Source: a virus (Duplodnaviria > Heunggongvirae > Uroviricota > Caudoviricetes). Taken from it: a stretch of 64,000 nt of DNA. The stretch's first letter is position 1. The number at the start of each line of letters is the position of its first letter. The stretch covers positions 165,073 to 229,072 of IMG/VR virus record IMGVR_UViG_3300031994_002305, one strand, 5' to 3'. The notes beneath the pieces are model-generated. The model did not search any database. It had not been told where the DNA came from and saw nothing but the letters and a program-made list of their open reading frames with translations. Positions 4,692 to 55,441 of the stretch are shown here, piece by piece. The position numbers and the translations under genes were made by a program.

Positions 4692-4850
4692 ATGATTAAT
4701 ACGTGTGGAAATTGTAAATTTTTTAATGAATATAAAGAAATGGTAAACAAAAAAAATATATGTAATTATCATGGGTTTACCGTCAATCCATCAAATTTAG
4801 GATGCTATTTAATTCAATATAATAAAAGAATAGAAAAAAATTTAATATGA
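4692..4850 (+). CDS. small Cys-rich (CxxC ... C-x2-H) protein, 52 aa
   Basis: ATG lies directly after the NDK stop and the stop overlaps the next gene's ATG (ATATGA). It is below the ORF-track size cutoff. CGNC...CNYH suggests a zinc ribbon. Confidence 0.25.
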   Translation: MINTCGNCKFFNEYKEMVNKKNICNYHGFTVNPSNLGCYLIQYNKRIEKNLI

Positions 4851-5503
4851 AAAAACTATATGTTTTATTAGATAATGGACATGGTATTAATACGCTTGGA
4901 AAACGTAGTCCTAAATTATCAAATGGTCAACAATTTTTTGAATGGCAATTTTGTCGAGAAGTAGTAGATGCATTATATGAAAGATTAAAAACATACGAAC
5001 AATTTGTTCCTATTAAGATAACTCCAGAAGATACAGATATATCATTAACAACAAGAGTTAATCGTATTAACCAATATTGTAATAAATATGGAGCTTCTAA
5101 TTGTATTATGATATCTGTACATGTTAATGCTGCTGGAAATGGTACATGGATGACAGCTAGAGGTTGGTCAGCATGGACTACAAAGGGAACATCAATTTCT
5201 GATAAATTAGCAGAATGCTTATATGAAGGCGCTGATTATGTAATTGGTAAAGATAAATATTATTCAAAAACATTTAAAGGATCTGCTAAACCAATAAGAG
5301 AAGATAAATCAGATGGTGATAGAGATTGGGAATCGAACTTTCAAATTATTAAAGGTTCTAATTGTGCAGCAGTATTAACAGAAAATTTCTTTATGGATAA
5401 TAAGGATGATGTTAATTATCTAATGTCAGCACAAGGACTTAATGATACAATATGCATTCATTTTAAAGGAATTGAAAATTATTATAATAAATACAAAAAA
5501 TAA
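4847..5503 (+). CDS. N-acetylmuramoyl-L-alanine amidase (Amidase_3 / MurNAc-LAA family)
   Basis: 'VLLDNGHGINTLGKRSP' resembles the Amidase_3 N-terminal 'ID(P/A)GHGG' motif. 'DISLTTRVNRINQYCNKYGASNCIMISVHVNAAGNG' resembles Amidase_3 'DxxLxxRxxxAN...ADlFvSIHaNA'. Confidence 0.55.
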   Translation: MKKLYVLLDNGHGINTLGKRSPKLSNGQQFFEWQFCREVVDALYERLKTYEQFVPIKITPEDTDISLTTRVNRINQYCNKYGASNCIMISVHVNAAGNGTWMTARGWSAWTTKGTSISDKLAECLYEGADYVIGKDKYYSKTFKGSAKPIREDKSDGDRDWESNFQIIKGSNCAAVLTENFFMDNKDDVNYLMSAQGLNDTICIHFKGIENYYNKYKK

Positions 5504-6186: not shown

Positions 6187-6213
6187 TTCATAATTTAAAT
6201 ATTATATAAAAAA

Positions 6214-6251
6214 ATCCAGAAATTTTCAATATTATTTGAATTTTTCTGGAT
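6214..6251 (+). terminator. rho-independent terminator hairpin (atccagaaa ... tttctggat) + T-run
   Basis: Perfect 9-bp stem at 6214-6222 / 6243-6251 followed by TTTTTT. The loop contains the TTTGAA element of the downstream promoter cassette. Confidence 0.5.
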
Positions 6252-6274
6252 TTTTTCTATATTATATTTGTAAA
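6229..6274 (+). promoter_or_regulatory. conserved promoter cassette class A: AATATTATTTGAATTTTT - N - CTATATTATATTTGTAAA (TTTG, 24 nt, TAtaTTTG)
   Basis: One of six near-identical cassettes (6229, 7891, 17812, 28042, 28478, 62678). Spacing between TTTG and TAnnTTTG is an invariant 24 nt. It ends 9 nt before ATG 6283. The Bacteroidetes sigma-A consensus is TTTG / TAnnTTTG. Confidence 0.55.
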
Positions 6275-7890: not shown

Positions 7891-7936
7891 AATATTATTT
7901 GAATTTTTGATAATTTGTTCTATATTATATATGTAA
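7891..7936 (+). promoter_or_regulatory. promoter cassette class A (variant -7: TAtaTATG)
   Basis: AATATTATTTGAATTTTT + 24 nt spacing + CTATATTATATATGTAATC. Ends 17 nt before ATG 7954. Confidence 0.5.
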
Positions 7937-8266: not shown

Positions 8267-8932
8267 ATGAACGCAAATAAATTTCTTACTATAACTTTCT
8301 GTTTATCAATATGTTATCAGTTATTCTGTAATAATATCGATGCAACTGAAAACAATACAAGTTATGTGAAAACTGATTCTATGTGTTCAATAAATCCGAT
8401 GTGTTCAGATATTATTGAACAAACTAAAAATATTGAACATCTGAATCATCCTAAGTCTTATCGTTTATCTAAGACAGGTAAGGATTATATTAAGTCACAT
8501 GAAACTTGTGTATTAGATGCTTATAATGATCCAGACCCAAATCGTCGTTCTGTTGGTTGGGGACATCAAATTCAACCAGGTGAATCTCTTGAACATATTA
8601 CACAAAAGAAAGCAGACGAATTATTTGAGAAAGATATTGAATGGGTTAATGATGCAATTAATAGATTACTTTCACAAACAGATAAGAGATTCATTTATAC
8701 TCAAGGGTTTATTGATGGTCTTGGTGATATGATTTATAATTGTGGTGAACGAGGTGTAACTCTTACTACATTCTGGGAACGACTTCAAAAATGTAGATAT
8801 GATAAAAATGAACCAGGATTTATTAATAAAAATGATTTAAATTATGCAATTGCTGGTGTTAAGACATCAAGAATTTCTGCTAAAGGACACATTGAACGTA
8901 GATATAATGCGCATAAAATGATGTTGAATTGA
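8267..8932 (+). CDS. T4-type lysozyme (GH24 muramidase) with N-terminal signal peptide/signal-anchor (SAR-endolysin-like)
   Basis: 'IKSHETCVLDAYNDPDPNRRSVGWGHQI' resembles T4 lysozyme '[25 protein letters not shown]' and keeps the catalytic Glu and Asp. The N-terminal 'MNANKFLTITFCLSICYQLFC' is hydrophobic. The start is moved from track TTG 8243 to ATG 8267, after the previous stop at 8253. Confidence 0.7.
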   Translation: MNANKFLTITFCLSICYQLFCNNIDATENNTSYVKTDSMCSINPMCSDIIEQTKNIEHLNHPKSYRLSKTGKDYIKSHETCVLDAYNDPDPNRRSVGWGHQIQPGESLEHITQKKADELFEKDIEWVNDAINRLLSQTDKRFIYTQGFIDGLGDMIYNCGERGVTLTTFWERLQKCRYDKNEPGFINKNDLNYAIAGVKTSRISAKGHIERRYNAHKMMLN

Positions 8933-14806: not shown

Positions 14807-15529
14807 ATGGATGCATCTGAAATATATGTTCAAGAATTATTAAGATCTGTTGTTAATTTATATAAATTATGTTTTGAAGAAATGGGATATGATTTAGGAC
14901 CAACAATTAATAAAATTGAATATAAAAATTATTTATATGATAATCCTTTACATTTAATGAATAATGATCCTGCATTTAATGGTGATCAACAATTTACTCC
15001 TTTATCTGAAGAAGATTTAGAATTCATTAAGAATTTAAATATACAGGATGGTGGAGAAGGTTTAGAACATACGGGTAAATTTTCTAATAAAGAAATATTT
15101 GTTAAGTCTATATTTAATGCATTTCTATCAAAGGGAGTTAATAAAATAGTTTCATTATGTATGACTGCACAAGCTGCATTAGAGTCAAGCTGGGGAACAT
15201 CACATTATGCGCATTTTTCAAACTATGGCGGTATAAATTATCATCAAGGAGCAGATTATAAAATACCTGGAAAAAGTGCGCACGGACATACAAAAGCAGG
15301 ATATAATAATTTAGGAAGATATGTTGAAGAAAAAATAGGCATAATGAATAGACTATATCCTGGTGCATTAGATTCAGATACTCCAGAAAAATATTTTAAT
15401 ATTATACAAGGTAATAATCCTAATCATTACAGCTATGGTGGTGAAACACCACAACAACGTGCAGATTATGGACGATTAGTTATGAGTGTTATTGGAATGG
15501 TTAAAAAATATTTAAATAGTAATGGATAA
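14807..15529 (+). CDS. peptidoglycan hydrolase, FlgJ-type N-acetylglucosaminidase domain
   Basis: 'SLCMTAQAALESSWGTSHYA' matches the glucosaminidase signature 'AAQAALESGWG'. Confidence 0.55.
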   Translation: MDASEIYVQELLRSVVNLYKLCFEEMGYDLGPTINKIEYKNYLYDNPLHLMNNDPAFNGDQQFTPLSEEDLEFIKNLNIQDGGEGLEHTGKFSNKEIFVKSIFNAFLSKGVNKIVSLCMTAQAALESSWGTSHYAHFSNYGGINYHQGADYKIPGKSAHGHTKAGYNNLGRYVEEKIGIMNRLYPGALDSDTPEKYFNIIQGNNPNHYSYGGETPQQRADYGRLVMSVIGMVKKYLNSNG

Positions 15530-16130
15530 CGTTAAAATAAATATTGACGGTGAAGGTAACCAATATTCTAATGAAAGTATTTTAAAAGGAATATTACATC
15601 ACACATGTTTTGATGGTGGATATGATCCTATTACAGGCGGTGGTATATATCATGTAGGTTCAGGATCTAGAAAAGAAATAATTAAAAAATTAGGATTTAG
15701 TGATAATCCGACAGCATCTGAATGTTGGAGTAAAATGACAACATTTACTTTAAATGCATATCCTAACTTTAAATTTACATTACATAAAGATTTAGTATCG
15801 GAAGTTCAAGAAATATATAATGAGTTAAAAGAATTAGGAGTTGAACTTAATAAATATCAAGGTCACTATTGTTTTAGACCAATTAATAATCCAAATAGAC
15901 CAGGTTCAAAAACATTATCTATGCATTCATTTGGTTGTGCAATTGATATAAATTATAATTTAAACCCATTTGTAAGAAATGGTGGTCCTTTATTAAGTGG
16001 GGACAATACAAAGGCAGGAATAGTACGAACATTAAATTCACCTATTGTAAAAGTATTTGCAAAACATGGATGGGGATGGGGTGGACATTATGGAGACTAT
16101 ATGCACTTTTCAAAAGCCAATGGTGGTTAA
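15522..16130 (+). CDS. peptidase M15 (VanY / L-alanyl-D-glutamate peptidase-like zinc peptidase)
   Basis: 'HSFGCAIDINYNLNPF' matches the HxxGxAxD motif. 'HGWGWGGHYGDYMHFS' matches the WxWGG...D-MHF motif. Confidence 0.6.
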   Translation: MDNVKINIDGEGNQYSNESILKGILHHTCFDGGYDPITGGGIYHVGSGSRKEIIKKLGFSDNPTASECWSKMTTFTLNAYPNFKFTLHKDLVSEVQEIYNELKELGVELNKYQGHYCFRPINNPNRPGSKTLSMHSFGCAIDINYNLNPFVRNGGPLLSGDNTKAGIVRTLNSPIVKVFAKHGWGWGGHYGDYMHFSKANGG

Positions 16131-16146: not shown

Positions 16147-17784
16147 ATGACAAATTTTTTAGGAGCAAATTGTTTAGGAGATTGTACTCCAGCACAAATT
16201 ATAACATTTACATATGCGTTTTCAAATAATTCAAATATTGAAATATATGGAATATGCGACAAATATTCAACAGATGTATTAGAGTATAGCTATAGTGTTG
16301 ATGGTTTATGCTGGACATCATATATGAATTATGATACATATCTATGTAATACTACAGAATTATCATCAGATTATTATCTTCGAATTCGTCTTAAAGGTGA
16401 TATATGTAAAATAACAATCGATGGAACAGATACATATGATTATAAAGCGCAAATAGAACAAGATTTTAATTTTAAATCTACAGTAACTGACAATACATAT
16501 AATCCTTATGCTAATTTAGATGCTGCATTAACTCTTCAACAAGAATTAGCAGAAAATGTATCAAATATTGTTGGTATTCCAATATATTATTTTAAGTTAA
16601 GCCCTAATGTTGGATCAAAAGATATTACATTTAAAGAATATGCTTTAATGGATGTTGAATCAGTTAAGCAATTAAAATTAGTTATAGCAGATGGGCAAAT
16701 GCCTTCATCACGCCCTGAATTTGCTGACTGGGGTATGGACTTTCAAACTGACTGGGAAACTGAAATAACAAAAGAATCATTTGCTACTGCTTTTGGTGTA
16801 ACTGCTCAACCTATGGAGGGTGACCTTATTTATATTCCATTAATGAAACGTATGTGGATGGTTAATTCTGCATATGAAGAAAAAAATGGAGCATTAATGT
16901 GGCAAGCAACAACATTTAAATTAATGCTTGTTAAATATCAAGAAAAAGGTTCAGTTGATTTAGGTGATACAGAATCATTGGTTAATTCATTTGTAAAAAA
17001 TAAATATGAAGATTTATTTGGTTCTGATGATGAAGGAAATATTGATTCTGGAGAACAATCATTAGAAGCACCTAAATATGCAGCAAATAATTTGTATCCT
17101 ATTTTTGAATCTGATGCTACTCGTAAGTTTATGACTTGTGATAGTATTGAAATTGAATCTAATGATTTATATTATAGAGGCACATTAATATCTGATTCAA
17201 AATATGAATTCTTACGTAATGATGTTGAATCACAAATTGTTTATCAAAAGAAAATATGTGGTTCTGAAATTACTACGTCATTTATAATATATCCTAAGAA
17301 TGGTTTTTATGATGGAATATTAATAGAGTTAGGCAATATAAAAATTAATATTCATCAAGAAGCAGATATATGTAATCTATTTATCAATATAAATAAAGAA
17401 GCTTCAATGCAACTTAATGCAAATAATTCATACTTATGCATATTTAGATACAGTAAATGTATGAACACTGTTAACTTTGAAGCACACGAATATACATATA
17501 ATAAAGACATACCAATGTATAAGTTAAGTAATATACATTATTGGTTTGAAATGAATGAATCATATTCAAAATATGTTGGTCAATATAATATTGAATATAA
17601 TATAGATAAAAATTCTGATGTAAAGATACATAACTTTGATGGATGTATAACAAATTTTAAATTATTTGATATTTATGAAGATCAACCTATGGAATTACTA
17701 CAAATGTATCCTACGCATCAACATTTAATAATTAATGATACAGCTCGTAAAGTTATTGGAAAATATGGAGTATCATTAAAATAA
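16147..17784 (+). CDS. hypothetical protein (545 aa)
   Basis: Long ORF with no recognised motif. Confidence 0.5.
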   Translation: MTNFLGANCLGDCTPAQIITFTYAFSNNSNIEIYGICDKYSTDVLEYSYSVDGLCWTSYMNYDTYLCNTTELSSDYYLRIRLKGDICKITIDGTDTYDYKAQIEQDFNFKSTVTDNTYNPYANLDAALTLQQELAENVSNIVGIPIYYFKLSPNVGSKDITFKEYALMDVESVKQLKLVIADGQMPSSRPEFADWGMDFQTDWETEITKESFATAFGVTAQPMEGDLIYIPLMKRMWMVNSAYEEKNGALMWQATTFKLMLVKYQEKGSVDLGDTESLVNSFVKNKYEDLFGSDDEGNIDSGEQSLEAPKYAANNLYPIFESDATRKFMTCDSIEIESNDLYYRGTLISDSKYEFLRNDVESQIVYQKKICGSEITTSFIIYPKNGFYDGILIELGNIKINIHQEADICNLFININKEASMQLNANNSYLCIFRYSKCMNTVNFEAHEYTYNKDIPMYKLSNIHYWFEMNESYSKYVGQYNIEYNIDKNSDVKIHNFDGCITNFKLFDIYEDQPMELLQMYPTHQHLIINDTARKVIGKYGVSLK

Positions 17785-17804
17785 TTTAAATAATATATAA
17801 AAAT

Positions 17805-17834
17805 ATCCTAGTATTTTGAAAAGAATGCTAGGAT
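17805..17834 (+). terminator. hairpin (atcctag ... ctaggat) embedded in promoter cassette
   Basis: 7-bp stem. The loop contains TTTGAA. It is immediately followed by TTTTCTATATTATATTG. Confidence 0.4.
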
Positions 17835-17854
17835 TTTCTATATTATATTGTAAA
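17812..17854 (+). promoter_or_regulatory. promoter cassette class A (TTTGAA - N - CTATATTATATTGTAAA)
   Basis: Conserved core. Ends 13 nt before ATG 17867. Confidence 0.5.
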
Positions 17855-26513: not shown

Positions 26514-27662
26514 ATGAAGAAAGTATTAGGTATTTTTTATAATACAAATTTTAATGAAAATTCTTTTAATACTGGATGTGGTGGATCTGAAACATGGGTA
26601 ATTCAAATATCAAAAGAATTTGTTAAAAGAGGATATCATGTTATAGTGTTTTCACAATGGGAAGAATGGTTCTTTTTTAATAGTGGAGTAGAATATGTTC
26701 CAATATCATTATATGAGTCAAGAATAAAATATCAGCATTTTGATGAATTTGTATTTGTACGTTCATTAGATAATGCTTATGATTTATTTGTAAAATATAA
26801 TGATTGTGAAAACATTTATTTACAGTCTCACGATATGTTTATATGGAAAGATGGTCTATATAATGAAAAATTCAATTATTTAACTTATAATCGTTTTGAT
26901 AAAGTTAAAAAATTTATAGCATTAACTGAATTTCATAAATGGGAATTAATAACTTATAATTTTATTCCAGAAGATAAAATAGAAGTTATTGGCAATGGAT
27001 TAGATTCTGATATATTTACAAAAGTAGATGAAACTGAAAGACCAAAACCAGATCATTCTATTTTATGGACATCTGCATTTGGACGTGGTGGAGATATTTT
27101 AGTAAATTATATTATGCCATTAGTTCAAAAATCAATACCTGATTTTACAGTTCATATTTGTGGATATGGAGATGGAGTACCTGATGAAATAAAAAGTAAT
27201 GCAAGTGTAAGATTTTTAGGAACATTAACTAAAGAAGAATATTATAATGAATTTAGAAAACATGCATGCTGGTTCTTACCATGTGTAGTTGTTGAAGACT
27301 TTGGTATTTGTGCTGGAGAAGCTGCTATGTGTGATTGTGATATTATTTCACCATTTAAACATGGAATGAAAGATGTATGTTGGCCATTTGAATCTTTAAA
27401 AATGAAAAATGAATTTAAAGTGGTTAAATCTAATGATTATCATTATGGGACATATAAATTAGATATGACTGAAGAAGAATTTCAACATGCATGTTATGAA
27501 GCAGCATATAAGATAATTACTTCAATTACTAAATATAATGATGAAAACAGAATTAAGATTCGTAATATTTGCAAAGAATTTATTATGAAAGAACATACAT
27601 GGAAAAATGTTGTAAATAAATGGATTAATATGTTTGAAATAAATAATAAAAAATCTATATAA
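26514..27662 (+). CDS. GT-B glycosyltransferase (GT4-like)
   Basis: N-terminal 'FNTGCGGSETWVIQISKEF' resembles the GT4 'GG(A/S)E' start of the N-terminal Rossmann domain. Size (382 aa) fits a two-domain GT-B enzyme. Confidence 0.45.
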   Translation: MKKVLGIFYNTNFNENSFNTGCGGSETWVIQISKEFVKRGYHVIVFSQWEEWFFFNSGVEYVPISLYESRIKYQHFDEFVFVRSLDNAYDLFVKYNDCENIYLQSHDMFIWKDGLYNEKFNYLTYNRFDKVKKFIALTEFHKWELITYNFIPEDKIEVIGNGLDSDIFTKVDETERPKPDHSILWTSAFGRGGDILVNYIMPLVQKSIPDFTVHICGYGDGVPDEIKSNASVRFLGTLTKEEYYNEFRKHACWFLPCVVVEDFGICAGEAAMCDCDIISPFKHGMKDVCWPFESLKMKNEFKVVKSNDYHYGTYKLDMTEEEFQHACYEAAYKIITSITKYNDENRIKIRNICKEFIMKEHTWKNVVNKWINMFEINNKKSI

Positions 27663-27684
27663 TATATACTAAAATTTATATTAT

Positions 27685-28041: not shown

Positions 28042-28087
28042 AATATTATTTGAATTTTATTTTAAAGGTACTATATTATAATTGTAA
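28042..28087 (+). promoter_or_regulatory. promoter cassette class A variant (AATATTATTTGAATTTT - N - CTATATTATAATTGTAA)
   Basis: Same 24-nt TTTG to TAtaATTG spacing. Lies upstream of the higher-GC gene 28122. Confidence 0.4.
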
Positions 28088-28442: not shown

Positions 28443-28477
28443 GGGTAAGAGGAATCTGTATAAGAATCTTCTTACCC
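28443..28477 (+). terminator. hairpin (gggtaaga ... tcttaccc) preceding promoter cassette
   Basis: 8-9-bp GC-containing stem with a 19-nt loop. Directly followed by TTTGAATATTTTTTATTTTTTT. Confidence 0.45.
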
Positions 28478-28519
28478 ATTTGAATATTTTTTATTTTTTT
28501 CTATATTATATTTTGTAAA
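28478..28519 (+). promoter_or_regulatory. promoter cassette class A (TTTGAA - 24 nt - TAtaTTTTG; core CTATATTATATTTTGTAAA)
   Basis: Conserved core. Ends about 19 nt before ATG 28539. Confidence 0.5.
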
Positions 28520-33894: not shown

Positions 33895-36800
33895 ATGGCA
33901 AATTATGTCGATAATGATGTTAATTTTACTGGTATAAAAAATCCAAAAATTCAAATTGGTGGAATAATAGGAGTTGATAAATATAGTACTGATGCAATTG
34001 GAAATATCGTACAAAATGTTCCAGTAATTAATGCTATTGACATTGATTGGAATAATGCTTCAGCTAATGGTATTGGACCTATTAAAACAACTGGTGATTT
34101 AATTAAAGCCATAGCAAATGGTGGTGGAGGAGATCCAAATTCCATACCAATTTATGATACTGATACAGTAGAAAATTTACGAACAAATAACCAATTACCT
34201 AATAAATTTATTAGTGTTGATAATTCTTTAGATTCAAACAACAGTTTAAATATGATTCATTATTTATTATCTGTTGTTAATGGATTACAACAAGAAATAT
34301 CAAAAATCAAGAATACATTTAATAAAGGTATATATTCGTATAATGGAGAAGCTACATATATGTCAACAACAGTTGCACAATATGGGGATGACGAAGAACC
34401 ATTATGGGCAATTGATGAATCAGAATTAGATGAAATTGAAGGATTTGAATTTGATTATGAAAATAATAATAATTTTGAAGATAATGGATTATTAGCTAAT
34501 CAAAAAGAAAATAGAATGTATGCTTATATTACATCTTCTTCAAATATTAATATTGTATTAAGATCAAAAACTAATAATATATTTGAATTTAATTTAACGG
34601 ATTATATTACATGTGATAAATGTAATATAATGATATTAATTAGTCGTAAGCCAGAAAATAAAGAATATCCTATTAATTTTATTTACATAGATGTTACTGA
34701 TTATGTAACAAATAAAAAACTATTATCGGGATATATTAATAATGATAAACAAATAATCATAAATGAAACTGAAGTAGGATCAAATTATTATTTTAGTAAT
34801 ATTAATTTACTTAGTGGAAATTATGAAAAGTTTAACATATATGTTCAAAATAGATCTTTTGGTAATGAAATAGTTCCAGTTACACCAGATGAAGATGAAA
34901 CTTCATATAGAGTTGCTCACATAGCAATAAGAACTGTTAAAAACGCCAATATATTAAAGAAAATAAGAGAACAACTTGTTAATGGCGAATTTATTGTTAA
35001 TGAAGAAACAGAAAAATTATATTTAAAGATAAATAATAAAATTATAAATATAGGTGCTGCAAGTGGTGGTGATGACATGAACACAGATCCTGTTAACCCA
35101 GATCCTGACACACCAGACGATACAGATAATATGGAAAATTACGAAATTATTAAAGCTCTTGAAACACAAGGAGTATTATCACTTATATTCAAGAATGCTT
35201 CAATTGTTGACATATCACAAAAATATGATCCTTCCAATATTGAATCATATAAACTTAATAGTATTGGTTCTGTAAGATTTACTCACGAAGATACTGGTAA
35301 AACATATGAATATAAAACTAATGCTTATGGTGAACTGGAAAGTAAGTTAATTGAAGATTCAACAACACTTGCTGAAAAATTACAAGGAACTACATTATTC
35401 AGTGATTTTAAATCATCAAGAGGATTCGTTGGTCAATTAGGTCATGAATTAGCACAACGTGATGGTAAATCATTATCATATAATGCAGATTATGGTTTAT
35501 ATGCTGACCGTATAAAGATTGCATCAATTTATGGACCACTTGATACTGATGTAACTTATGGATGTTCACATGCATTTATTGAATTAGAAAATACAAGTAA
35601 TATTGATTTTAATTTACAAGGATGTCAATTGCATTATATTAAAAAATCAGATGAATCTAATTATTATGTTAAATATTCATTAGATTTAACTGGTATTATT
35701 CCTGCAGGAAGTACTTATTTGATAAGAGGTAAAAAGTATATTAAAAACGATGAAGATTCAAATTGTTTTATTCATGTTAATAACTATGACCAAGAATGGT
35801 ATATTAATGGAGAATTATTAGATTTAACAATGAATAAGAATAATGGGTCATATGTTTTAATTATGTCATATCATGGAAAAATTAAAACAGCAAATTCATA
35901 TATTGATTTCTTGTCTCCTACAGATATGTTATATAAATTAGGTTTAGATATTAATGAATCTACAATTGCAGCAAATACAGATTTAGGATTATATTTAGGT
36001 ACAACAGAAAAGAAAGGAAGTTTAACAATATGTGCACCTAATGATGGTGAAACAAAAATAGGTGAAATTATTTGTCAGGATGCAAACGATAAAGCTATTA
36101 AAAATGCACCATTAGTTTATGCTAAAGGTTTTATTGATGCATTAGCATTTAATAAAACTGCATTCGGTATTACATCAGCATTTGATAGCTTATCATCTAA
36201 CACAATATGTCGTGGCACATATGTATTAGATCCAGCAAAGCAAGCTTATAACTCTTTTACAATGAGAGATAGTTCTAGAAACAGATGGGCTAAAAAGGGT
36301 AATGACTATCAATATTTAAAATTAGAAAAAAGATATATAGAATTTCCTAAGACTATAACAACTCGTGATGTTGATTATTATGCACCTAAAGCTTCTTTTG
36401 AACATAAAAATGTAATAACAGATAAAACACATTTTGATAAGAAAAAACCTAATGCAGTAACAGTATCTTATGGTGCAAATGTTTATACAACTAGATGTTT
36501 TAACTGGTTATCAGCCGCTAATTTAGATGAATATGTTTGGATATATGATTCTAATGGAAATCAATTAGGAGTATTTGAATCATATAAGAAAGTAGATACT
36601 GCTATAACACAATCTAATTCATTCCCACGTAGAAAAGAATTTTCAGTAGATGTTAATAATATTGTCTATTGTGATTATAGAATTAATGATGTTATAGATA
36701 GAAGTAATAAAAACAAAGATGTAACATACAAAAAGTATGCAACAGCTCCACGTGCATGTGGTATATTCGCAGGATCAAATGATTTCTTTGTATCTCATAA

Positions 36801-38739
36801 ATGTATTATAGATATTGTTGAAAATCCTGTTAATGAAGAAACAACATACTCATATATTGTCGGTCAAGCTGATAAGAATAAAAAACCTTTAGAAGGATAT
36901 TGTTCTGAAAGAAGATACTTTACATTATATCCTGATACATATACACCAGTTATATATCAAATAACAGACCAGCAAGGATTCCATTGGATTGAATATCAAG
37001 TTTGGGCTGCTGCTGCTGAAAGTTTAAATCAAAAGATTATTTATGAAATGGATGCGGCACGTGATGGAAATGGACATGGTATTATGCCTATCATTATTAA
37101 TACTGGTGATGCTACACAATCAGGTTCTCGTATTAATGAATGGTTAGATTATTTTATTGCTGGTGATTGCTTATTTAATCATTTTGAACAAAATAATATT
37201 GTTGGTAATAATGACTTAAATGGTACTGATATTCAGGCATTAGGTACGGGTGATGACCCAGGTAAATCAAATGCTTATTATTATTACTTATTTAATTGTA
37301 ATGAAGTCAATAATTTCTTTGGTGGTGATGTAAATCCACATTATCCAATTGTAAATAATACTTATGTACCATCATTATATTATTTAGACACTAATAATTT
37401 TAGATTAGTAATGTGTAATTCTGAATTAACTCCTATTAACTGTCGTGATTGGTTTAATTTAAGATGTACTCCATATGAAGGTGATAATACAGAATATACA
37501 ATTAATATTTATACAGGATTTAATTTAGTTGGTAGTAAAACAGATAGTCCTGAAAAATATGTGGCTGATGCATTTGGATTTACACCTATTTATACATTAT
37601 TATGGCATGCATTTAATAAATTAGAAAATGGTAATCGTAAATGCATAGCAGCTTGTCATGAAATGCCATTTACAGTTGTAACAAATGCATGTTGTTCAGA
37701 ACCAAATCAATTAGAAAGATTTAGAAGTATGTCTGATGCTGCATCTCCAGGTAAATTAATTGGTAGTCATATGAATCAAATGGAGCCAACAGAAAATGGA
37801 GCAGGTGTTTATTGGTTTAGTAGATTACTTGAAAGTATGGGAGTTAAATTATGTATTGGTGGTCATAAACATACATACGCAATATCATACCCAGTTAGAG
37901 AATATTATAAATATTATAAAAATGGTACTTTAGTTAGTAGTTTAACAGATGGTCCAATGCAAATGGATGAAACATTGGCATTCGAAGAACGTGATTCAAT
38001 AAACGATTATAAAGTTCTTTGGAAATGGAAAGCTTCAGCTCCAACAAATAATCGTAATGTAGAATACCCTTGGTGTGAAACTGCATTAAAGGATAGTAAG
38101 GAAAAACTTTATTTAGATGGTGATAAGAATACATCTGAAACAACAGGTATGATTAACTGGTCTAAATTACCAATAACATATATGGAAAATACAATAAATT
38201 CAGATCTTTTACCAATTAATAAATTTTATCCTTCTAAACCATTATACGTAGATGACGGATATCGTGATAGTGCAGTTACTTATATAATGTGTCAAGCAAC
38301 TGGATATAAATTAACATCAAATAAAGAATTACCTACTCCTAACCAAAAATTCTCAAGAATTATACCAGTAACAAGTAATGGTTCTGATGGAACAGATACG
38401 CCAGATAATAACCAAAAATTCCCAATGTATATTAAATATGTTGTAGATAATTTAGGACAATGCAATGTATATTTAGCAAGAGCAAAAAATATATTTAATG
38501 GTAAGTATAAATTTACACAAATTGCTTATGGAACTAAAGATATTGAATGGACATATTTAATTGATAAAGCTCAATATGTTAAGAGTTCTGATGAATCAAA
38601 ATTGGATGTAGTTTCAAAATATAATGATTCAACAACACAAGCAGAAATAGATGAAGTTAAACTAAGTGCTGAAACTTACGATAACTATGGATTATGGTTA
38701 AAATCTGAAAAGAAAATGATTCCAACAATTAATATTTAA
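33895..38739 (+). CDS. giant virion structural protein (1614 aa), putative tail fibre/baseplate-associated
   Basis: Very long N/Y/T-rich ORF. It is terminated by a strong hairpin at 38762 and sits next to a 2830-aa ORF and the capsid/tail module. No enzymatic motif found. Confidence 0.55.
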   Translation: MANYVDNDVNFTGIKNPKIQIGGIIGVDKYSTDAIGNIVQNVPVINAIDIDWNNASANGIGPIKTTGDLIKAIANGGGGDPNSIPIYDTDTVENLRTNNQLPNKFISVDNSLDSNNSLNMIHYLLSVVNGLQQEISKIKNTFNKGIYSYNGEATYMSTTVAQYGDDEEPLWAIDESELDEIEGFEFDYENNNNFEDNGLLANQKENRMYAYITSSSNINIVLRSKTNNIFEFNLTDYITCDKCNIMILISRKPENKEYPINFIYIDVTDYVTNKKLLSGYINNDKQIIINETEVGSNYYFSNINLLSGNYEKFNIYVQNRSFGNEIVPVTPDEDETSYRVAHIAIRTVKNANILKKIREQLVNGEFIVNEETEKLYLKINNKIINIGAASGGDDMNTDPVNPDPDTPDDTDNMENYEIIKALETQGVLSLIFKNASIVDISQKYDPSNIESYKLNSIGSVRFTHEDTGKTYEYKTNAYGELESKLIEDSTTLAEKLQGTTLFSDFKSSRGFVGQLGHELAQRDGKSLSYNADYGLYADRIKIASIYGPLDTDVTYGCSHAFIELENTSNIDFNLQGCQLHYIKKSDESNYYVKYSLDLTGIIPAGSTYLIRGKKYIKNDEDSNCFIHVNNYDQEWYINGELLDLTMNKNNGSYVLIMSYHGKIKTANSYIDFLSPTDMLYKLGLDINESTIAANTDLGLYLGTTEKKGSLTICAPNDGETKIGEIICQDANDKAIKNAPLVYAKGFIDALAFNKTAFGITSAFDSLSSNTICRGTYVLDPAKQAYNSFTMRDSSRNRWAKKGNDYQYLKLEKRYIEFPKTITTRDVDYYAPKASFEHKNVITDKTHFDKKKPNAVTVSYGANVYTTRCFNWLSAANLDEYVWIYDSNGNQLGVFESYKKVDTAITQSNSFPRRKEFSVDVNNIVYCDYRINDVIDRSNKNKDVTYKKYATAPRACGIFAGSNDFFVSHKCIIDIVENPVNEETTYSYIVGQADKNKKPLEGYCSERRYFTLYPDTYTPVIYQITDQQGFHWIEYQVWAAAAESLNQKIIYEMDAARDGNGHGIMPIIINTGDATQSGSRINEWLDYFIAGDCLFNHFEQNNIVGNNDLNGTDIQALGTGDDPGKSNAYYYYLFNCNEVNNFFGGDVNPHYPIVNNTYVPSLYYLDTNNFRLVMCNSELTPINCRDWFNLRCTPYEGDNTEYTINIYTGFNLVGSKTDSPEKYVADAFGFTPIYTLLWHAFNKLENGNRKCIAACHEMPFTVVTNACCSEPNQLERFRSMSDAASPGKLIGSHMNQMEPTENGAGVYWFSRLLESMGVKLCIGGHKHTYAISYPVREYYKYYKNGTLVSSLTDGPMQMDETLAFEERDSINDYKVLWKWKASAPTNNRNVEYPWCETALKDSKEKLYLDGDKNTSETTGMINWSKLPITYMENTINSDLLPINKFYPSKPLYVDDGYRDSAVTYIMCQATGYKLTSNKELPTPNQKFSRIIPVTSNGSDGTDTPDNNQKFPMYIKYVVDNLGQCNVYLARAKNIFNGKYKFTQIAYGTKDIEWTYLIDKAQYVKSSDESKLDVVSKYNDSTTQAEIDEVKLSAETYDNYGLWLKSEKKMIPTINI

Positions 38740-38833: not shown

Positions 38834-41800
38834 ATGAAATTACATAATAACGAAAATGATTCATTTATAATAACATCAAATGACATATTAGTAAATGGTG
38901 ATAAATCTGATGTTTTAACTAACGTTATTAATAAGCAAGAAGATAAGTTAACAAGTTTAGAACGAAATATCAAATGGCTTTATAAATATGGAGGTACAGG
39001 ATCAAAAGGTTCTGGATCATCTAATGGTGTTTCGTTTAGTGTAGATGCAAATGTATTATTTGGTAATATAATTATTCAAAAATCTATTAATCAAAAATTA
39101 ATATTATCAAATAGTAATAAAAAATATGAAACATTATCAATAAGTTTAAATAAAACAAACATATTGAATATTTATCAAGCTAGAATTACTGGTACTGGAT
39201 TTTCACAAAGTAAATGGTATGATTTAACACAAGATAATGATTATGGATTATCATTCAATGTACCTGTTGATGATACTGGAACAATAAAAATAGAAATTAA
39301 AGGTACAAGTACATTAACTGGTGATAACGATAATGCAACATATTTATTTACATATATCAAAAATCCTTATGTATTTAATTTATCATTAATAGATAATAAT
39401 GATAAAAACATATTAGATGGAGATAATTTATATGTTAATGAAGCAATAGAAAAGGGAGTAAACTTATTTATTGATTATAACATAGTTTCATCAAAACAAA
39501 TATCATATGAAATAACATGTGACGAAACTATGTTAACTAATTATGAAGGAATAATTAATGATAGTGAACATGGTGTAGGTTTAGGTAATTTGTCTATTCC
39601 TTTTAATTCATCATTTATATCAAATGACAATAATTATGGATCTCATACAATTAACATTAAATTTAAAATAGATCCTGATGAGTCATTAGGAATATCAAAT
39701 GGACAGATTATTACTAAGAATATATCATTTACATATATTCCTAATAATCAAATATTCTTTAAAATAGAATCAACAAATAATAAAGCAAAAATATATAAAT
39801 ACTCAGAAACAAATTATAATAATGCAATTATTCAATTTAATTTATATAAAAGTTATTATGAGTATTTTAAAATTCTTGAAAATGAACAAGAATTAGACCC
39901 AGTTATTCGTGAAGGTTTGATTAATACATTAGTAGATGAATCATTAAGACCTTCAATAACAGATAATCAATTAAAAGATGTAATTGAAAATAAATTAAAC
40001 GAAATTGAATCAGAACTTTATATATTTAATGTAGGATCTTTACAATTATATTTACAAGCATATTTAGGATCAAATACATTAAATACGGTAGATGTTTCAT
40101 ATATTTTAGATGATGGTGAAAATATAATTGATAATGAATTATTAAGTTCATTACAATATAGAAAACGTCAAATGATTAATATACCAGTTCAAGAAGAAGG
40201 TGTATATAAATTATGTATTTATTCGAAGAATCAAACTGAGCAACAACGTATTTATTACTATTTTGCTGCATTTGATAAAAATAGTGGAATTAACTGGTAT
40301 AATGCTGATGTTGAATTTAATGAAATTGATTTATTCTTTAAAGAAGGAAAAATAGGAACACATCATGAAACTAATTTAAGTCTTAATTGTTTAAATACAA
40401 TTAAAAATTATGAAAGTGTTCAAAAGATTCAAAAATATGCTAATGGAGAACCTTCACAATTATTTGATATTAGTAATGAATTAAATTTATTAGCTCAACC
40501 AGATTGTGACATAATGTTATCATTTGGTATTCAATATTCATATATTAATAGTGATAATGTAAAGTTAATGTCAATTTTAACAAATAACAATAATAGCTCA
40601 TTAAATCTTGACATATATCAAAATAGAATTAATGAATATAATTCATCAAATACATTAGCAAAAATATTCATACCAAAGGAACATAATTATGCTCCTTCAA
40701 ATAATGAAAACTATCATTTATTAACATTATATAAAAGATATGTTTATGAAACAAATTCACCTTATTATGAAATAATAATTTATATTGATGGATGTCCTGA
40801 AGCAGCATTTAAAAACTTTGTTAAAGATTCATCATGTTGGTCTTCAGTATATTTAAATAACTCAAATTTTTCATTGAACTTTTTTGAGTTAGCATATTTT
40901 CAACATAATAAAAATAGTTTAAAAAGATTTGACAAAAATGAAACATCAGGAACAGTTACACAAAATAAAGTAACATATCTTGATGATATAGCAATATCTG
41001 AATATTATTATAAGTATATAAGTACACATAAATCTTTAGGTAATATTATTTCATTACTTGCTAATCTTCGTAATTTCAAAGAAACAGATTATGGAATGAT
41101 AGAAGTTGCTTCAAGAAATGATATTGATTCAATTGCAAATGGTATTGATATTCCAGTTTTACTTTTAGAATATACAGATCAATCTGATAATGAATTTGTT
41201 AATTGGTTTACTAAATCATATAAAGAAACCGAATTAACAAAAGATAAAAAGAAATTAGATTACATATATTATTCAAGTGGTTTAAATAAACTTTCACAAA
41301 TTGATTTACCCGATGAATTAGCTGGTTCATATTGGTATGCTGCATTGCAAGGTTCTTCTACAGGTGAATTATTTGATAAAAACTTAACATTAGGTATTAA
41401 TAACCAAACACCTGGTCGTATGGGTATATTTACACCTAATTTCTATGACGTTAATGAAACTTTATTTAACAGTAATAATTTAACAGAAGAAGAACAAACA
41501 ATTGTATCAAAGGCAAAAAATTCATTCTTACCAGAAACTGCATATACATTAAAGGCAGACGTTGTTGACTCTTCACATAGTAACAATACTGCTGTTGGTG
41601 CATTCGTTAATGCAAATACAACACAATTTAATATATTATTTGATGGTGGTAATACAAATAAAGGTAATAATAAATATGTTAATTATATTAAAAACTGTTT
41701 GTTAGGTTTCCCTGTATTAGTATTTGCTAATGTTAACAGAAATGGTAAATCAACATATTATTTTCTTGGTATATACAATTTCAACTTAGGTCGTGATTCA

Positions 41801-44800
41801 TATTTTAATATGGGTTATTATAGTCCACGTATTTTACAAGAACAGAATCAAATTTCATCTGCATTAAATAATGCATCAGGTAAAGATTTCATTGTAACAT
41901 ATGTAGAATTTACTAACTTAGATATGAAAACATTACCTGTTGATGATGGTGTTATTGTTGCAGAAATTCAAGGTGGTAAAGAATATTTCGATTTTTCACA
42001 ATATCATTCAACAATGTTATTACCACAGGATGTACAACAAGGCACCGATAATGGATGTATGTTTGGTGATTTTGTTCCAAAATATGATCCATCTAAACAA
42101 TCAAATGCAGATTTACGTATAAGATATCATATACCTAGATTAGTTGAAGCAATTTCTAAAGCAGGTGGTTATTTATTTGATAATGTATTACATAAACATT
42201 TAGGTGAATACAAATATGGATATAATAAGTATATTGATAGAGGATATGGTTCATCTATATTTGATTCAGCAAACCAAGTTCCAAATTATAAATTACAATA
42301 TGTAAGAGCACCTCAAGAAAGTGATACTGATTTACAATATTTAATTCATAATTTCCAAAAAGATGAACGTGGTCAAATTATTTTAAATTCAAATGGACAA
42401 CCATCAATTGACCCATCATATTATGCTGATGATTATGCAGTTGGACGTTTATTAGATACACATATTGATGAAGGTTTTGATCCTTATCAACGTGGTAATG
42501 ATCCTATATTAGATTATACAAGTGCAACTGAATATTATACTGCATGTATGGGATTTGGTCTTGTTGACTCAGTAATGAAAAACCTTAATGTTAAATCATG
42601 GAATGCAACGTATGTTGAAGGTGCGGATAATTATAAAAATGGTAAATGGTATGTAGCATTTTATGATATGGATACATCATTTGGTAGAGATAATGGTGGT
42701 GCAAAAACTTCTTATTTTGCATTCTCAGATTATTGGAAAACAGGAAAAACTACTGAATTAGAAGAACCAACAATATATAGAGATTTCTATCCAATGTCAG
42801 ATCCAGAAAATCCTAATGTCGTTGGACAATCAATGGCAGAATCTGGATTTGATATACCTTCATCATATTTATTTGCTGTTGCTAAATATGCCCATTTATT
42901 AAATGATGAAAAATCTGATTCATTATTAGTACCAAAAGGTTCAATACCTCACAATATATGGGCTAGATGGAGATGTATCTCAAACAATATAGGAGATATA
43001 TCAGGTCCTGGAACAGGTGAATTAAGATCTGCAGATTATTTCATACAAAAATATTTCATTAGAAATTTAGATAATATCCCTGAACAAATTTGGGCATTAA
43101 ACTATAGACTTAAATATTTAAAACGTATTTCACCAGATTCAACAAATAAATATAACTATACATATAATACTGATGAAAATGGCTCATTTGAAAACCTTAA
43201 TTACATTCCATTCCATGGAAAAGGCATTAATGAGTTACATGAATGGTTAGGTGGTCGTTTACATATATTAGATTCATATTTTAATTTAGAAGGTAATGAT
43301 AAATTAAATATTAAGTATCTTGAATATACTGAAAATGAATCTAATGAAAATAATCCTAAATTTACACCTATAATAAGATTAGATAGTGTACAAGGTTATA
43401 AATATAATGATATTGATACTCCTAATGCAGATAGTAATGGTAATTATAAATGGTTATCATCATCTTATAATGATAAAATTCCAGATATAACTCCTGATGT
43501 ATTAGGTTCAAATAAAGATATTGAAATATTAAAGGATATATTTTCAATAAATGGAAATGGTGCACGTTATTCGCAACCTATTGATATTTATATAAAATCA
43601 CAAGAATTTTCACCATTTAACATTACAACAGCTATGGGTGAAAAATATAAATATTTATTGGAAGATCCTGACACCGAATATCACATATCATATAAACCTA
43701 GAGGATTAGTTATCACAAAATTTGGTGGTTCGACTCTTTGGACATATATTAGAAATCTTAATACAGTAATTAATGAAAATACATTAACATTAAATACTGA
43801 AAACTTAGATCAAATTGTATTAACAAAAGGTAAATGTAGTACTTATAATATATCAGCGATGAAATCATTAAAAATTGTAAGTATTATTAAGGATTTATAT
43901 GATAATGATTCACAGTTTACTGGAACTTTAACATTTGCATTAGATGCGAATAATACTGACCCATATCCTGATTTAACAATAATTGAATTAATAAGAACAG
44001 AAATAACATTAACATGTAATGGTGTTGGTGTATCAGTAATTAATTTATCTAATACACAATCAACCGACACAAAAATTATAAACTGTAAAAACTTAGAATC
44101 AGTTAACTTATCAGGATTTACTGCTCCTTCTTTGGATATTATGCCAGGATGGTCAAATGATATGGAAATTAATTTATCAAAAGTTAATAAGATAAAAATT
44201 AGTCCTAAAGATAAAACAGCTAACGAACGTAAAATTTCTATTAAAAATGACTTAAAATTAACAACAGTCATATTGGAAGATTTTACTCATATTTCTTTAG
44301 CATATTGTCCTAACTTATATAATATTTGCATATTAAATCCTGAACATGTAGAATCTTTAGAGATAATAAAATGTAATACTGATTCAAAAGCTAATCATAA
44401 TTTACATATTTATTTTAATGAATTAGATGAATCATCAGAAAATGATTCAACAACAATTGACTTAAAACAATTAACAAATATTCGTTCATTTAAATTTAAT
44501 GGTACAGGTGGATTCAATACATTAGATGCATCAGAATCAGATGGTGAACAAATTACTATTAATGGAAATACATATAACTGTTTAAAATTATATGGAGATG
44601 CCTTCTCAGGAACATCTTTAGAAAGAATAATAACTAAACCTAATGTATATTTATATATTAATAGTGATAATATCAATGGAACTACTGGAACATTTAATGA
44701 TTCAAATTATGGATCATATCCTAATAAAATGATTATTGGTAAAAATGTTAAAAAATTAGATTCATTATTTAAACATGATTTGGGTGGTACTTTAACTTCA

Positions 44801-47479: not shown

Positions 47480-49093
47480 ATGACAAATAAACGTTGCTTG
47501 ATCTATGAAACATTGGGTGAAGTTAAACAATTACAAGTTTCTGAAGCAGCAGCGCCTAAAGGTATGATGAGACTTGAAGGTGTATTTGGCGTATGTGGTA
47601 TTAAGAATCAAAATAATCGTGTTTATGATAAAGAAAACTACCGTCAAATGGTAGAATCTTTACAAGCAGTTATTAAAGAATCTGGTTGTCCTGGTGAATT
47701 GGAACATCCAAATTCAATGAATATCAATCTTGAAAATGTTTCACACAAGATTGAAGATATTCAAATGAATGAAGATGGAACTATCACAGGTACAATTCTT
47801 TTATTAAATACCCCTAAAGGTCAAATAGCTCAAGCCATTGTAGAAGGTGGTCTTCCACTTTATATTTCATCTCGTGGTGCTGGTACTATTACTAATGAAG
47901 GTAAAGTTACTTTATCTACAATCAAAACTTATGACTTAGTTGGTACACCTGGTTTCAGTCAAGCCAAATTAACTCTTAAGCAAAATCAAACTTTAGAATG
48001 TTTAAATGAATCTGCTGAAGAAGGTAATGTTATTTATGCTATTGTTGAAGGTGAAGAATCTAAAACAGATGATAACGAAGATCCTAAAAAAGAAGATTCT
48101 AAAAAAGAAGACGATAACAAAAATAAAGATAATGGTAAAGTAGATATGAAAGAACTTAAAGAAGCTATCGATAAGCTTACTGAGAAGGTTACTTCTCTTG
48201 AGGCTGAACTTCATGTAGCTCAAGAATCTTTAAATGAAGCAAAATCTATCAAACCAACTAATTATGATGCTATTCAACAATGGGTAACTGAAGAATTCTG
48301 GCCTGCATATAAGAATCAGATCCAAATTCCTGAAGGTGTATCTATGGAAGATATTGAAACAATGGTTGATGCTAAATTAAGTGAATCAATTAATACAATA
48401 GCTGAAGGTGTTGAAAGTTGGGTTGTTGAAGAATTTGCCCCAGAAGTACAGAACTGGGTAGTTGAAGAATTTGCTCCAGAAGTACAGAATTGGGTAGTTG
48501 AAGAATTCGCTCCAGAAGTTCAGAACTGGGTAGTTGAAGAATTTGCTCCAGAAGTTCAAAATTGGATTGTTGAAGAATATTCACCAGAAGTACAAGGTTG
48601 GATTACTGAAGAATTTGCACCAGTTGTTGAAGGTTGGATTAATGAAGAATTCGCTCCTGAACACAAACAACAAATTGAAGAAGCTGTAAATGCTAATGTA
48701 TCTGCATTTATGGAATCACAAAAGGCTGGTCGTCTTGATGAAATTGATAGTTTATTAGAATCAATTGCTCAAGATGGTAATAATGATGTTAATAAGATTG
48801 TTGCTGAACAACAAAAAGAAAACAAGTACAAAGGAATTTATGTAGTAGAAAGCATGCCTGCTGAATATACTGCATCTTGGGAATTACTTGATGAAGCTCG
48901 TCAACAAGAAATTATTCGCACTTCTAAGATGTATGACTTCACAAAAGAAGGAGTACTTGAATCATTCTGGGCTAATGTAGATTTTAATAAGACTACAAAA
49001 ACTGAAAGAATCAACGAAAATAATAACCCAGTTGATAACTATCAAATGAATATTGTTAACAGAATGAGATCACTTCGTGGTTTATATGCTTAA
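47480..49093 (+). CDS. prohead protease (HK97/T4 gp21-like) fused to acidic scaffold-like domain with 13-aa tandem repeats
   Basis: The N-terminal approx. 170 aa ('RLEGVFGVCGIKNQNNRVYDKENY ... GELEHP') resemble HK97-family prohead protease motifs. The remainder is an acidic coiled coil with 7 x 'W(V/I)VEEFAPEVQN'. It lies directly upstream of the MCP. The start is moved from track TTG 47465 to ATG 47480. Confidence 0.45.
   Translation: MTNKRCLIYETLGEVKQLQVSEAAAPKGMMRLEGVFGVCGIKNQNNRVYDKENYRQMVESLQAVIKESGCPGELEHPNSMNINLENVSHKIEDIQMNEDGTITGTILLLNTPKGQIAQAIVEGGLPLYISSRGAGTITNEGKVTLSTIKTYDLVGTPGFSQAKLTLKQNQTLECLNESAEEGNVIYAIVEGEESKTDDNEDPKKEDSKKEDDNKNKDNGKVDMKELKEAIDKLTEKVTSLEAELHVAQESLNEAKSIKPTNYDAIQQWVTEEFWPAYKNQIQIPEGVSMEDIETMVDAKLSESINTIAEGVESWVVEEFAPEVQNWVVEEFAPEVQNWVVEEFAPEVQNWVVEEFAPEVQNWIVEEYSPEVQGWITEEFAPVVEGWINEEFAPEHKQQIEEAVNANVSAFMESQKAGRLDEIDSLLESIAQDGNNDVNKIVAEQQKENKYKGIYVVESMPAEYTASWELLDEARQQEIIRTSKMYDFTKEGVLESFWANVDFNKTTKTERINENNNPVDNYQMNIVNRMRSLRGLYA
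48419..48691 (+). repeat. 7 tandem copies of a 39-bp repeat encoding W(V/I)xEE(F/Y)(A/S)PEVQ(N/G)
   Basis: Copies start at 48419, 48458, 48497, 48536, 48575, 48614 and 48653. The first four are nearly identical at the DNA level. Confidence 0.8.
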
Positions 49094-55378: not shown

Positions 55379-55441
55379 ACTTTTCTATATTAAATTTATA
55401 ATTTTTTAAATCATTTATTAATTTATATTAAATAATAAAAA

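Follow-up and report, generated by a model that had tools for sequence, protein, structure and literature searches.

The DNA analysed here (the window) is a stretch of 64,000 nucleotides from a virus of the Caudoviricetes (IMG/VR record IMGVR_UViG_3300031994_002305, positions 165,073 to 229,072), located on a 156-kb ENA contig, close to one of its ends. It is about 25% in G+C content and densely coding, with 5.8% intergenic DNA. The genes are aligned on the + strand up to about 57 kb, followed by a replication-type operon on the minus strand (57.2-62.6 kb) and again by + strand genes from 62.9 kb. The products encoded include a prohead protease, a major capsid protein and a tail sheath. Six strong copies of a short bipartite element, referred to below as class A, are present on the + strand within intergenic spacers, with the general form TTTGAA-N16(17)-CTATATTATA-(t/a)TTG-TAA. 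Here we describe this element, which is probably a promoter merged in part of its copies with a transcription terminator.

The initial annotation had listed six copies of a 22-nt core preceded by TTTGAA, and both parts were found at all six sites. The composite pattern gave 5 exact matches in the window and 8 matches with two or fewer mismatches, against 1.16 expected from shuffled sequences, while the 22-mer gave 5 matches with three or fewer mismatches, against 0.06 expected. With a matrix of two blocks, built from 72 related-phage instances without the window, exactly 8 window sites were detected (the six copies and the sites at 55385 and 27655), against 0.43 expected per window from shuffles. 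All 8 sites are on the + strand, upstream of + strand genes. The copies were also recovered by an independent repeat finder with no prior, as families D3, D4 and D6, the similarity between copies reaching up to 78 nt. An origin by chance or low sequence complexity is ruled out by the counts of the 22-mer, the composite pattern and the matrix against shuffles. A generic sigma-70 promoter scan, giving 174 hits against 175 expected, was uninformative at this G+C content.

Except for one weak copy (copy 7 in Table 1), which the initial annotation had missed and which has its box within the 3' end of a glycosyltransferase gene (26514-27662) and the ATG at 27685 30 nt downstream, all copies are intergenic. 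The weak relative at 55385, also listed before, was recovered as a core without its upstream box. Some details require correction. For some copies, the start coordinates had been placed too far to the left by about 6 nt, and the distance from TTTG to the TA of TAnnTTTG, described as an invariant 24 nt, is 24 nt in five window copies and 25 nt in the copy at 17815. The claim of an ATG close downstream holds for five strong copies, at 29-51 nt. For copy 6, however, the nearby ATG opens a mini open reading frame (mini-ORF) of four codons (62737-62751), and the real gene start at 62915 is 214 nt from the core C; for copy 1, both the gene call and the orthologues indicate 6292, not 6283, as the likely start.

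Table 1. Class A copies, terminator-like hairpins, sigma gene and class B sites in the window.
Feature	Position	Strand	Elements and remarks
Class A copy 1	6235-6273	+	TTTGAA 6235-6240, 16 nt, CTATATTATATTTGTAA 6257-6273; probable start codon 6292, 35 nt past C; 37.0 bits
Class A copy 2	7898-7936	+	TTTGAA, 16 nt, CTATATTATATATGTAA; core 7920; ATG 7954; 35.6 bits; A/T palindrome only, no significant hairpin
Class A copy 3	17815-17853	+	TTTGAA, 17 nt, CTATATTATATTGTAA (one T fewer); core 17838; ATG 17867; 24.2 bits
Class A copy 4	28049-28087	+	TTTGAA, 16 nt, CTATATTATAATTGTAA; core 28071; ATG 28122; 36.5 bits; no hairpin
Class A copy 5	28479-28518	+	TTTGAA, 16 nt, CTATATTATATTTTGTAA (one extra T); core 28501; ATG 28539; 24.2 bits
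Class A copy 6	62679-62717	+	TTTGAA, 16 nt, CTATATTATATTTGTAT; core 62701; divergent intergenic region; 34.0 bits
Class A copy 7 (weak, new)	27633-27671	+	TTTGAA, 16 nt, CTATATAATATATACTA; matrix hit 27655; ATG 27685; 19.2 bits
Weak relative	55385-55401	+	Core only, CTATATTAAATTTATAA, no TTTGAA box; 57 nt before ATG 55442; 20.3 bits, nearly all from the core
Terminator-like hairpin of upstream unit	6214-6251	+	Arms ATCCAGAAA 6214-6222 and TTTCTGGAT 6243-6251; -22.1 kcal/mol, z = -7.9
Terminator-like hairpin	17805-17834	+	13 pairs; encloses TTTGAA of copy 3; TTT, then core; terminator scan; -15.6 kcal/mol, z = -5.9
Terminator-like hairpin	28443-28477	+	Ends one base 5' of TTTGAA of copy 5; T-run merges into box; -20.6 kcal/mol, z = -4.1
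Phage sigma-70-family gene	62915-64000, past window end (full 62915-64075)	+	386 aa; PHROG 351, TIGR02937
Class B sites	about 4246, 11390, 13663, 14776, 19039, 20431, 26486, 33153, 33859, 38796, 47389, 49122, 51107, 54287, 62788	+	
Class B site	62638	-	

The consensus was refined with a set of 263 upstream regions from about 400 kb of related-phage DNA, in which CTATATTA is the top-enriched 8-mer (68 of the 263 regions, 9.5-fold). Conditioning on CTATAT only recovers TTTGAA at -22 to -17 and T-ATA-TTTG-TAA (tTTGTAA) downstream. For 80 copies collected in the clade, the most conserved positions are TTTGAA and CTATATT with 16 nt between them; the spacer is 16 nt in 58 of the 80 copies and rarely 17-18 nt, and the distance from the C to the start codon peaks at 30-38 nt. 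The G of TTTG is present in 45 copies (56%) and the following TAA is kept in 72-80%; a perfect TAnnTTTG -7 element is found in two of the six window copies. Copies with a spacer other than 16 nt are too few for compensation between spacer length and G position to be assessed. The two-block structure and the fixed distance to start codons bear out the earlier assignment of these sites as promoter-type elements.

The motif is common to a clade of uncultivated phages of about 380-465 kb. An exact-pattern scan of IMG/VR hit many contigs, the full motif being present in about 35 loci (related loci are given below by numbers with the prefix L). Of the loci mapped for gene order, 14 have proteins and gene order in common with the window, at 30-86% identity, and contigs of 376-465 kb carry proteins identical or similar to one window protein. 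The frequency of class A in the clade is about one copy per 8-10 kb, and about one per 10 kb in loci fetched by the sigma gene and so not chosen by the motif. No match to the class A matrix was found in 50 kb of Lak-A1 or of LR756500, both being structural regions, where the window is also free of copies. A DNA similarity search of two window segments against 50,697 phage records gave no match, and among the papers open to search none has the motif string in a phage context.

A related pattern is present outside the clade. IMG/VR loci of unrelated phage families without Shine-Dalgarno sequences (L011, L042, L058, L098; L032, L103, L104; L025, L052, L114) carry TTTGAA-N16-CTATATTATA, without the TTTG tail, 16-45 nt before genes for a probable capsid protein, a gp32-like single-strand-binding protein and a probable GTP cyclohydrolase I. 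Start codons were located downstream in 12 sense against 4 antisense cases, among hits chosen by the pattern search itself and with host assignment failed or mixed. The first block alone may work as a promoter in the hosts of these other families, and the pattern weakly favours a promoter read by the host.

All six copies had been described as fused terminator-promoter cassettes. By folding, significant hairpins were detected at three of the six window copies (Table 1), and the description stands for the sites at 6214, 17805 and 28443; no significant hairpin was obtained by folding at 7898, 28049 and 62679 (z = -1.8, +0.8 and +0.5). The hairpin at 17805-17834 was found by the terminator scan, and folding supports those at 6214-6251 and 28443-28477, where a stem containing G+C leads into a T-run as the unit ends. 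All three are predicted to be intrinsic terminators. The hairpin at 6214-6251 has an upper stem of TTCAA/TTGAA, an A-run upstream and a T-run at 6251-6256 after it, and encloses the TTTGAA box of copy 1. The box had been placed in the hairpin loop at both 6214 and 17805; it is indeed enclosed at both sites, but at 6214 its TTGAA is paired with TTCAA and at 17805 it straddles stem and loop. As also described before, the hairpin at 28443 directly precedes the box; the T-run after 28477 is interrupted (ATTTGAAT). A 40-nt block (ATAATTTAAATAtTATATAAAAAaATCC...), 83% identical between 6190-6229 and 17781-17820, is located 5' of two hairpin-bearing copies and is present in L027 and L081 as well; the cassette is therefore about 95 nt in length, beginning at the stop codon of the upstream gene.

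Strong hairpins, of -11 kcal/mol or better, are present at about 22 of the 80 clade copies, 12 of them flanking the TTTGAA box with their arms and about 10 ending at the box. Their 3' ends relative to the C fall into two phases, -2 to -6 for box-enclosing hairpins and -22 to -29 for abutting hairpins with the T-run extending into TTTGAA. The stems themselves differ, including ATCCAGAAA, AGCTAGGAA, AAGCTGGAA, GTCCAGAAA, CCTTAGAA and others. When four stem types were compared by script, every difference was a change on both sides of a pair, and at the orthologous site 5' of gene 6283 all three differences between the window and L006 are compensated. Hairpins orthologous to 6214-6251 in L027 and L006 have compensated stems; the sites orthologous to copy 4 in L112 and L081 carry a box-enclosing hairpin; and those orthologous to copy 5 in L040 and L113 are arranged like copy 5 but with other stems. 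RNAalifold on an ungapped alignment of the hairpin copies gave no structure, since the loop lengths differ. Because of the compensated stem changes, an RNA hairpin is favoured over a palindrome bound by a sequence-specific protein, and for this subset the concept of compact terminator-promoter modules is upheld by a layout kept in related phages. Each signal would use the free positions of the other, the loop holding the box and the promoter spacer holding the 3' arm and T-run.

The gene adjoining a class A copy differs between the window, L027, L095, L006 and L056. The copy upstream of 6283 comes after gene 5509 in the window, after a 4692-type gene in L027 and after a kinase gene in L006, and in L095 a copy is located directly before a lysozyme gene. 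In L040 and L113, a full copy is present at the site equivalent to 55385, after the orthologue of gene 54383-54967, and a 28539-type gene with its own terminator and copy follows the tail genes, where the window has only the degenerate core at 55385. Neighbours are conserved across none of 15 class A junctions against 36 of 104 junctions elsewhere (p = 0.005), and Pfam annotation is found for 2 of 15 class A unit genes against 14 of 23 others (p = 0.006), both tests being indicative, as they were made on related, non-independent loci selected mostly by the motif. The cassettes appear to mark breakpoints of gene order and to head runs of small unannotated genes. The differences in neighbouring genes are suggestive of recombination between copies.

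The window also carries a second motif, class B (TATTTTTA-type), with the consensus tTATTTTTA(t/a)(a/t)TA(a/t)A and without any upstream or -35-like block. It is usually located 27-45 nt (up to about 96 nt) before the ATG and is more numerous than class A, with 19 matrix hits in the window against 5.5 expected. Class B is also present in L006, L020, L027, L040, L055-L057, L078 and L121-L124. The genes preceded by class B include those for kinase, glucosaminidase, acetyltransferase, glycosyltransferase, protease, capsid and sheath, both giant ORFs, a 194-aa gene of unknown function that comes after the sheath gene (54383-54967) and the helicase operon on the minus strand. Following TATTTTT, A was found 57 times and G once. 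Several class B copies also come directly after a hairpin, and the fusion of a terminator with the next promoter is general in this genome. Class B is a candidate for a middle or late promoter class. The two giant ORFs (33895-38739, 1614 aa; 38834-47326, 2830 aa), each after a class B motif, are located just 5' of the protease and capsid genes. Neither gave a significant match in Pfam or PHROG; no Pfam match was found for the 2830-aa and 1399-aa proteins, and the catalytic motif DxDGD of RNA polymerase was not found in the large ORFs.

Both motifs are located upstream of the gene starting at 62915. Its product matches PHROG 351 ('RNA polymerase sigma factor', E = 4.6e-13) and, along the whole profile though with a score under the curated cut-off, TIGR02937 (E = 3.3e-5). 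No significant Pfam match was obtained for the protein itself; among its homologues of about 50% identity, some have PF04542 and are named 'sigma-70 family' at their source. The protein thus appears to be a divergent member of the sigma-70 family. The complete gene is present on the minus strand of L116 (5622-6782), and homologues of 48-100% identity are found on contigs of up to 465 kb. In the window this gene is the first in a long series of small genes on the + strand and points away from the helicase operon. The divergent control region (62607-62914, 308 nt) contains class A copy 6, the mini-ORF, a class B site (TATTTTTA, 62788) and a B-like site (TTTTTATATATAAA, about 62848), together with the class B copy on the minus strand, which is 32 nt before the TTG start at 62606. 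In L121 a mini-ORF is likewise located between the A and B copies. The order of class A, class B and sigma gene is kept in four relatives, of which the sigma proteins are 48-77% identical.

A Shine-Dalgarno-like sequence precedes only 1 of 70 window genes; the leaders are A-rich with A at -3, and those downstream of motif copies contain CAAACAAA-type words. Scarcity of Shine-Dalgarno sequences is a Bacteroidota pattern (PMC6847099), which suggests a host of the Bacteroidota type. Identities of 31-38% relate the capsid protein to those of Tenacibaculum phages pT24 and PTm1, Sphingomonas phage PAU, the Lak phages of Prevotella and metagenomic phages of more than 400 kb; its relatives include phages of Prevotella, Tenacibaculum, Flavobacterium and Chryseobacterium, but other phyla are represented too. 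Neither CRISPR nor prophage evidence tied the phage to a host, and a scan of 185,579 bacterial and archaeal genomes with the 20-base motif gave 7 hits, none with protein similarity to the window.

The closest known counterpart of the merged element is PeSL, the early-promoter and stem-loop cassette of T4-like phages (Arbiol et al. 2010, PMC2839356; Comeau et al. 2014, PMC4122927). In PeSLs, the stem-loop is located upstream of the -35 box, overlaps with it, or lies between the two boxes, and the cassettes recombine and are enriched beside unannotated genes in variable regions (PMC2839356, PMC4122927). Extended conservation of these early promoters and stem-loops over the -35 box had been described earlier (PMC2839356). 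As in PeSL, a well-conserved promoter is joined in class A to a stem-loop upstream of or overlapping the box, forming a repeated intergenic composite in the same orientation as the downstream gene, with an A/T-rich upstream stretch, a fixed short distance to the start codon, and a location next to small unannotated genes and variable gene order. In contrast to PeSL, class A belongs to a clade of about 400-kb phages, related in capsid to Lak, pT24 and PAU and not T4-like; its sequence is TTTGAA-N16-CTATATTATATTTGTAA instead of TTGACA-N17-TATAAT; it contains no Shine-Dalgarno part; and a tightly fused hairpin is present in only about one quarter of its copies. Promoter and terminator activities and mini-circle recombination were shown experimentally for PeSL; for class A, both activities are predicted from sequence. 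Class A thus seems to work like PeSL, yet to be outside the described set by its lineage, its consensus and the lack of a Shine-Dalgarno part. That it is a composite promoter/terminator cassette of the PeSL kind is held with high confidence.

Phage programmes with two promoter classes and a phage sigma factor include those of SPO1 (gp28), T4 (gp55) and phiEco32 (gp36). The present phage resembles them in having a host-like bipartite class before small genes and the sigma gene, and a -10-like class before enzyme and structural genes. It differs in that the sigma protein seems to keep a region 4-like domain though class B is without a -35 block, and in that we infer the assignment of each class to a polymerase. 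The explanation we prefer, as a probable one, is that class A is a bipartite sigma-type promoter (TTTGAA, 16 nt, CTATATTATA-tTTG-TAA, the C usually 30-38 nt from the start codon), merged with the intrinsic terminator of the upstream unit in about one quarter of the copies, in a PeSL-like manner. Two layouts would be used: in one, the arms flank TTTGAA, and the 3' arm and T-run occupy the sequence-free spacer; in the other, the hairpin ends at the box and its T-run doubles as the TTT of TTTGAA. Stop and restart signals would then be placed within about 50 nt, with the promoter shielded from read-through. Class A would be an early class read by the host RNA polymerase with its primary sigma factor, an assignment that we regard as evenly balanced, and would also drive the phage sigma gene, the product of which would then serve class B before metabolic, replication and structural genes. 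Several observations favour the host-read early class. TAnnTTTG in clade upstream regions is almost confined to the class A word TATATTTG (29 of 39), while class B ends in A and not in G by 57 to 1. The class A-then-B order upstream of the sigma gene is kept in four relatives. Class B precedes enzyme and structural genes, and class A unannotated genes and the sigma gene. Shine-Dalgarno-like sequences are scarce, and the capsid relatives include phages of Prevotella and the three other genera named with it above.

Several points weigh against this explanation. Half of the window copies are without a hairpin, the tests of synteny and annotation are no more than indicative, Bacteroidota is a predicted host phylum, and the promoter and terminator activities of class A are read from its sequence. 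A phage sigma factor with regions 2 and 4 could itself read a bipartite promoter. A further difficulty is in the comparison with sigma-ABfr promoters of Bacteroidota (-33 TTTG, -7 TAnnTTTG), to which the initial annotation had matched the elements. Both words are present, with an A/T-rich spacer and a leader without Shine-Dalgarno sequence, but the best-conserved positions are TTTGAA and CTATATT, the C and TATAT being outside the Bacteroidota consensus, and the G is kept in only 56%. The spacing also differs. In a control, Bacteroides phage B40-8, (T)TTG is located upstream of 17 intergenic TAnnTTTG boxes at 19 nt (mode), and TATATTTG is the commonest -7 word (5 of 17), whereas the distance from TTTG to TATATTTG in class A is 24 nt. 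The B40-8 mode agrees with the -33/-7 spacing of 19 bp reportedly optimal in Flavobacterium johnsoniae (Chen et al. in 2007). At 24 or 25 nt, TTTG is outside the range of 18-21 nt for a -33 element, and falls within it only when the role of -7 element is given to the first TATATT.

The 24-nt spacing, which had been called atypical, is so with respect to B40-8, but could be an artefact of register, since TATAT-TATAT overlaps and its first TATATT lies exactly 19 nt from the class A TTTG. On this alternative, that first TATATT (C-TATATT) would act as the -10-type element, in the arrangement TTGAAt-N16-TATATT, with transcription starting at the conserved G of TTTGTAA; the spacing would be canonical, and 'TAnnTTTG at 24 nt' a by-product of the overlap. 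We regard this alternative as nearly as likely as not. The 16 nt that separate TTTGAA from C-TATATT, the blocks conserved best, fit the distance needed by a sigma-70-family holoenzyme, and TTTG-TATATT has the B40-8 mode of 19 nt. Position 13, located 7 nt after the last T of TATATT where the start site is expected, is a purine in 65 of 80 copies (81%), and relatives with a degenerate tail (CTATTTTATAAATA, CTATATTAAATATA) retain the first block at orthologous sites. However, the -7 box in the 19-nt register is TATATTAT, without TG, another point against the host-type assignment: T-6 and G-5 are both missing, and the TG of the -7 box is nearly invariant in F. johnsoniae promoters (PMC6847099). 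In Bacteroidota promoters, 4-5 nt separate the -7 element from the start of transcription (PMC6847099). With its tail TATATTTG, the class A consensus contains a Bacteroidota -7 box without mismatch, which is also the word most used in B40-8. The TAnnTTTG register therefore has a perfect -7 box, but the -33 contact cannot be made by a box located 24 nt before it.

Rather unlikely, in our view, is that class A is a middle class, independent of host-type early recognition, read by the phage sigma-70-family factor (62915-64075) or by a phage activator like T4 MotA, as the initial annotation had considered. The sigma gene does exist, its product appears to have region 2 and a region 4-like helix-turn-helix, and class A consists of two parts, with a gap held rigidly at 16 nt and a downstream block that opens with an invariant C. 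The conserved positions outside the host consensus, and the gap between the host words 5 bp too long against B40-8, point in the same direction. The full 20-base motif is absent from the bacterial and archaeal genomes save the 7 unrelated hits, and PeSL-like cassettes with middle promoters (PmSLs) are known in phage nt-1 (PMC4122927). The motif was, however, not linked to this factor, and the gene association points the other way: the sigma gene itself is behind a class A copy, so another promoter must start its expression, and the class B present there is without the host-type G; phage sigma factors usually drive enzyme and structural genes, here located behind class B; and the host-like -7 words in the upstream regions belong almost only to class A. 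No MotA/AsiA-like pair was found in Pfam and PHROG scans of the window proteins, which were not aimed at such proteins.

Improbable is a stronger version, in which TTTGAA and the -7 box are separated by 5 bp, or half a helical turn, more than the host holoenzyme accepts, so that class A is phage-specific and read only by the phage sigma or a modified polymerase, the box in the loop couples termination to initiation, as the initial annotation had speculated, and the copies recombine, moving genes between genomes. Very improbable is that the repeats are not transcription signals but sites of recombination or mobility, protein-binding palindromes, or signals for RNA processing or translation: the copies coincide with synteny breakpoints, their similarity extends up to 78 nt with the 83% identical block 5' of two hairpins, and the ATG distance is tight with CAAACAAA-type words in the leaders, but the element consists of two short blocks separated by 16 unconstrained nt and always has the orientation of the gene whose start codon follows 30-38 nt downstream, its stems covary rather than stay fixed, which argues against a palindrome binder, no Rfam match was found, and PeSLs show that promoter repeats can recombine and still function as promoters.

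Other features of the window were recorded in parallel. Rfam and tRNA scans gave no Rfam match and no tRNA. Four separate genes of the cell-wall hydrolase type are located within 12 kb: 4847-5503, 8267-8932, 14807-15529 and 15522-16130 (Amidase_3, phage lysozyme, glucosaminidase and peptidase M15). A shared opening of 33-46 nt (ATGAAAGATATTAAAGAATATAT..., MKDIKEYI...) is found at 19480, 20458, 21372, 24010, 25824 and 26173, in several small genes and at one internal site, which suggests a paralogous family or a repeated N-terminal module, located between motif copies. The prohead protease gene (47480-49093) contains, in its C-terminal part, about 8 tandem repeats of 36 nt (12 codons) at 48365-48661, listed by the repeat finder as six overlapping 117-nt copies at 36-nt steps.

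The design of promoters with stop and restart signals is known already from T4-like phages, and the present finding is solid and fairly ordinary. With it, a clade of uncultivated phages of about 400 kb gains a testable map of transcription, consisting of two promoter classes, a sigma gene under both and compact stop/restart modules. The idea developed for PeSLs, that regulatory cassettes mark the sites of gene shuffling, would be extended from T4-like coliphages to very large phages probably infecting Bacteroidota. The 5-bp offset between the host-like words raises a sharp, small question on promoter recognition in a phylum where the -33 element is poorly defined, and the 45-nt element is a candidate for a compact insulator/promoter part for the engineering of Bacteroidota.

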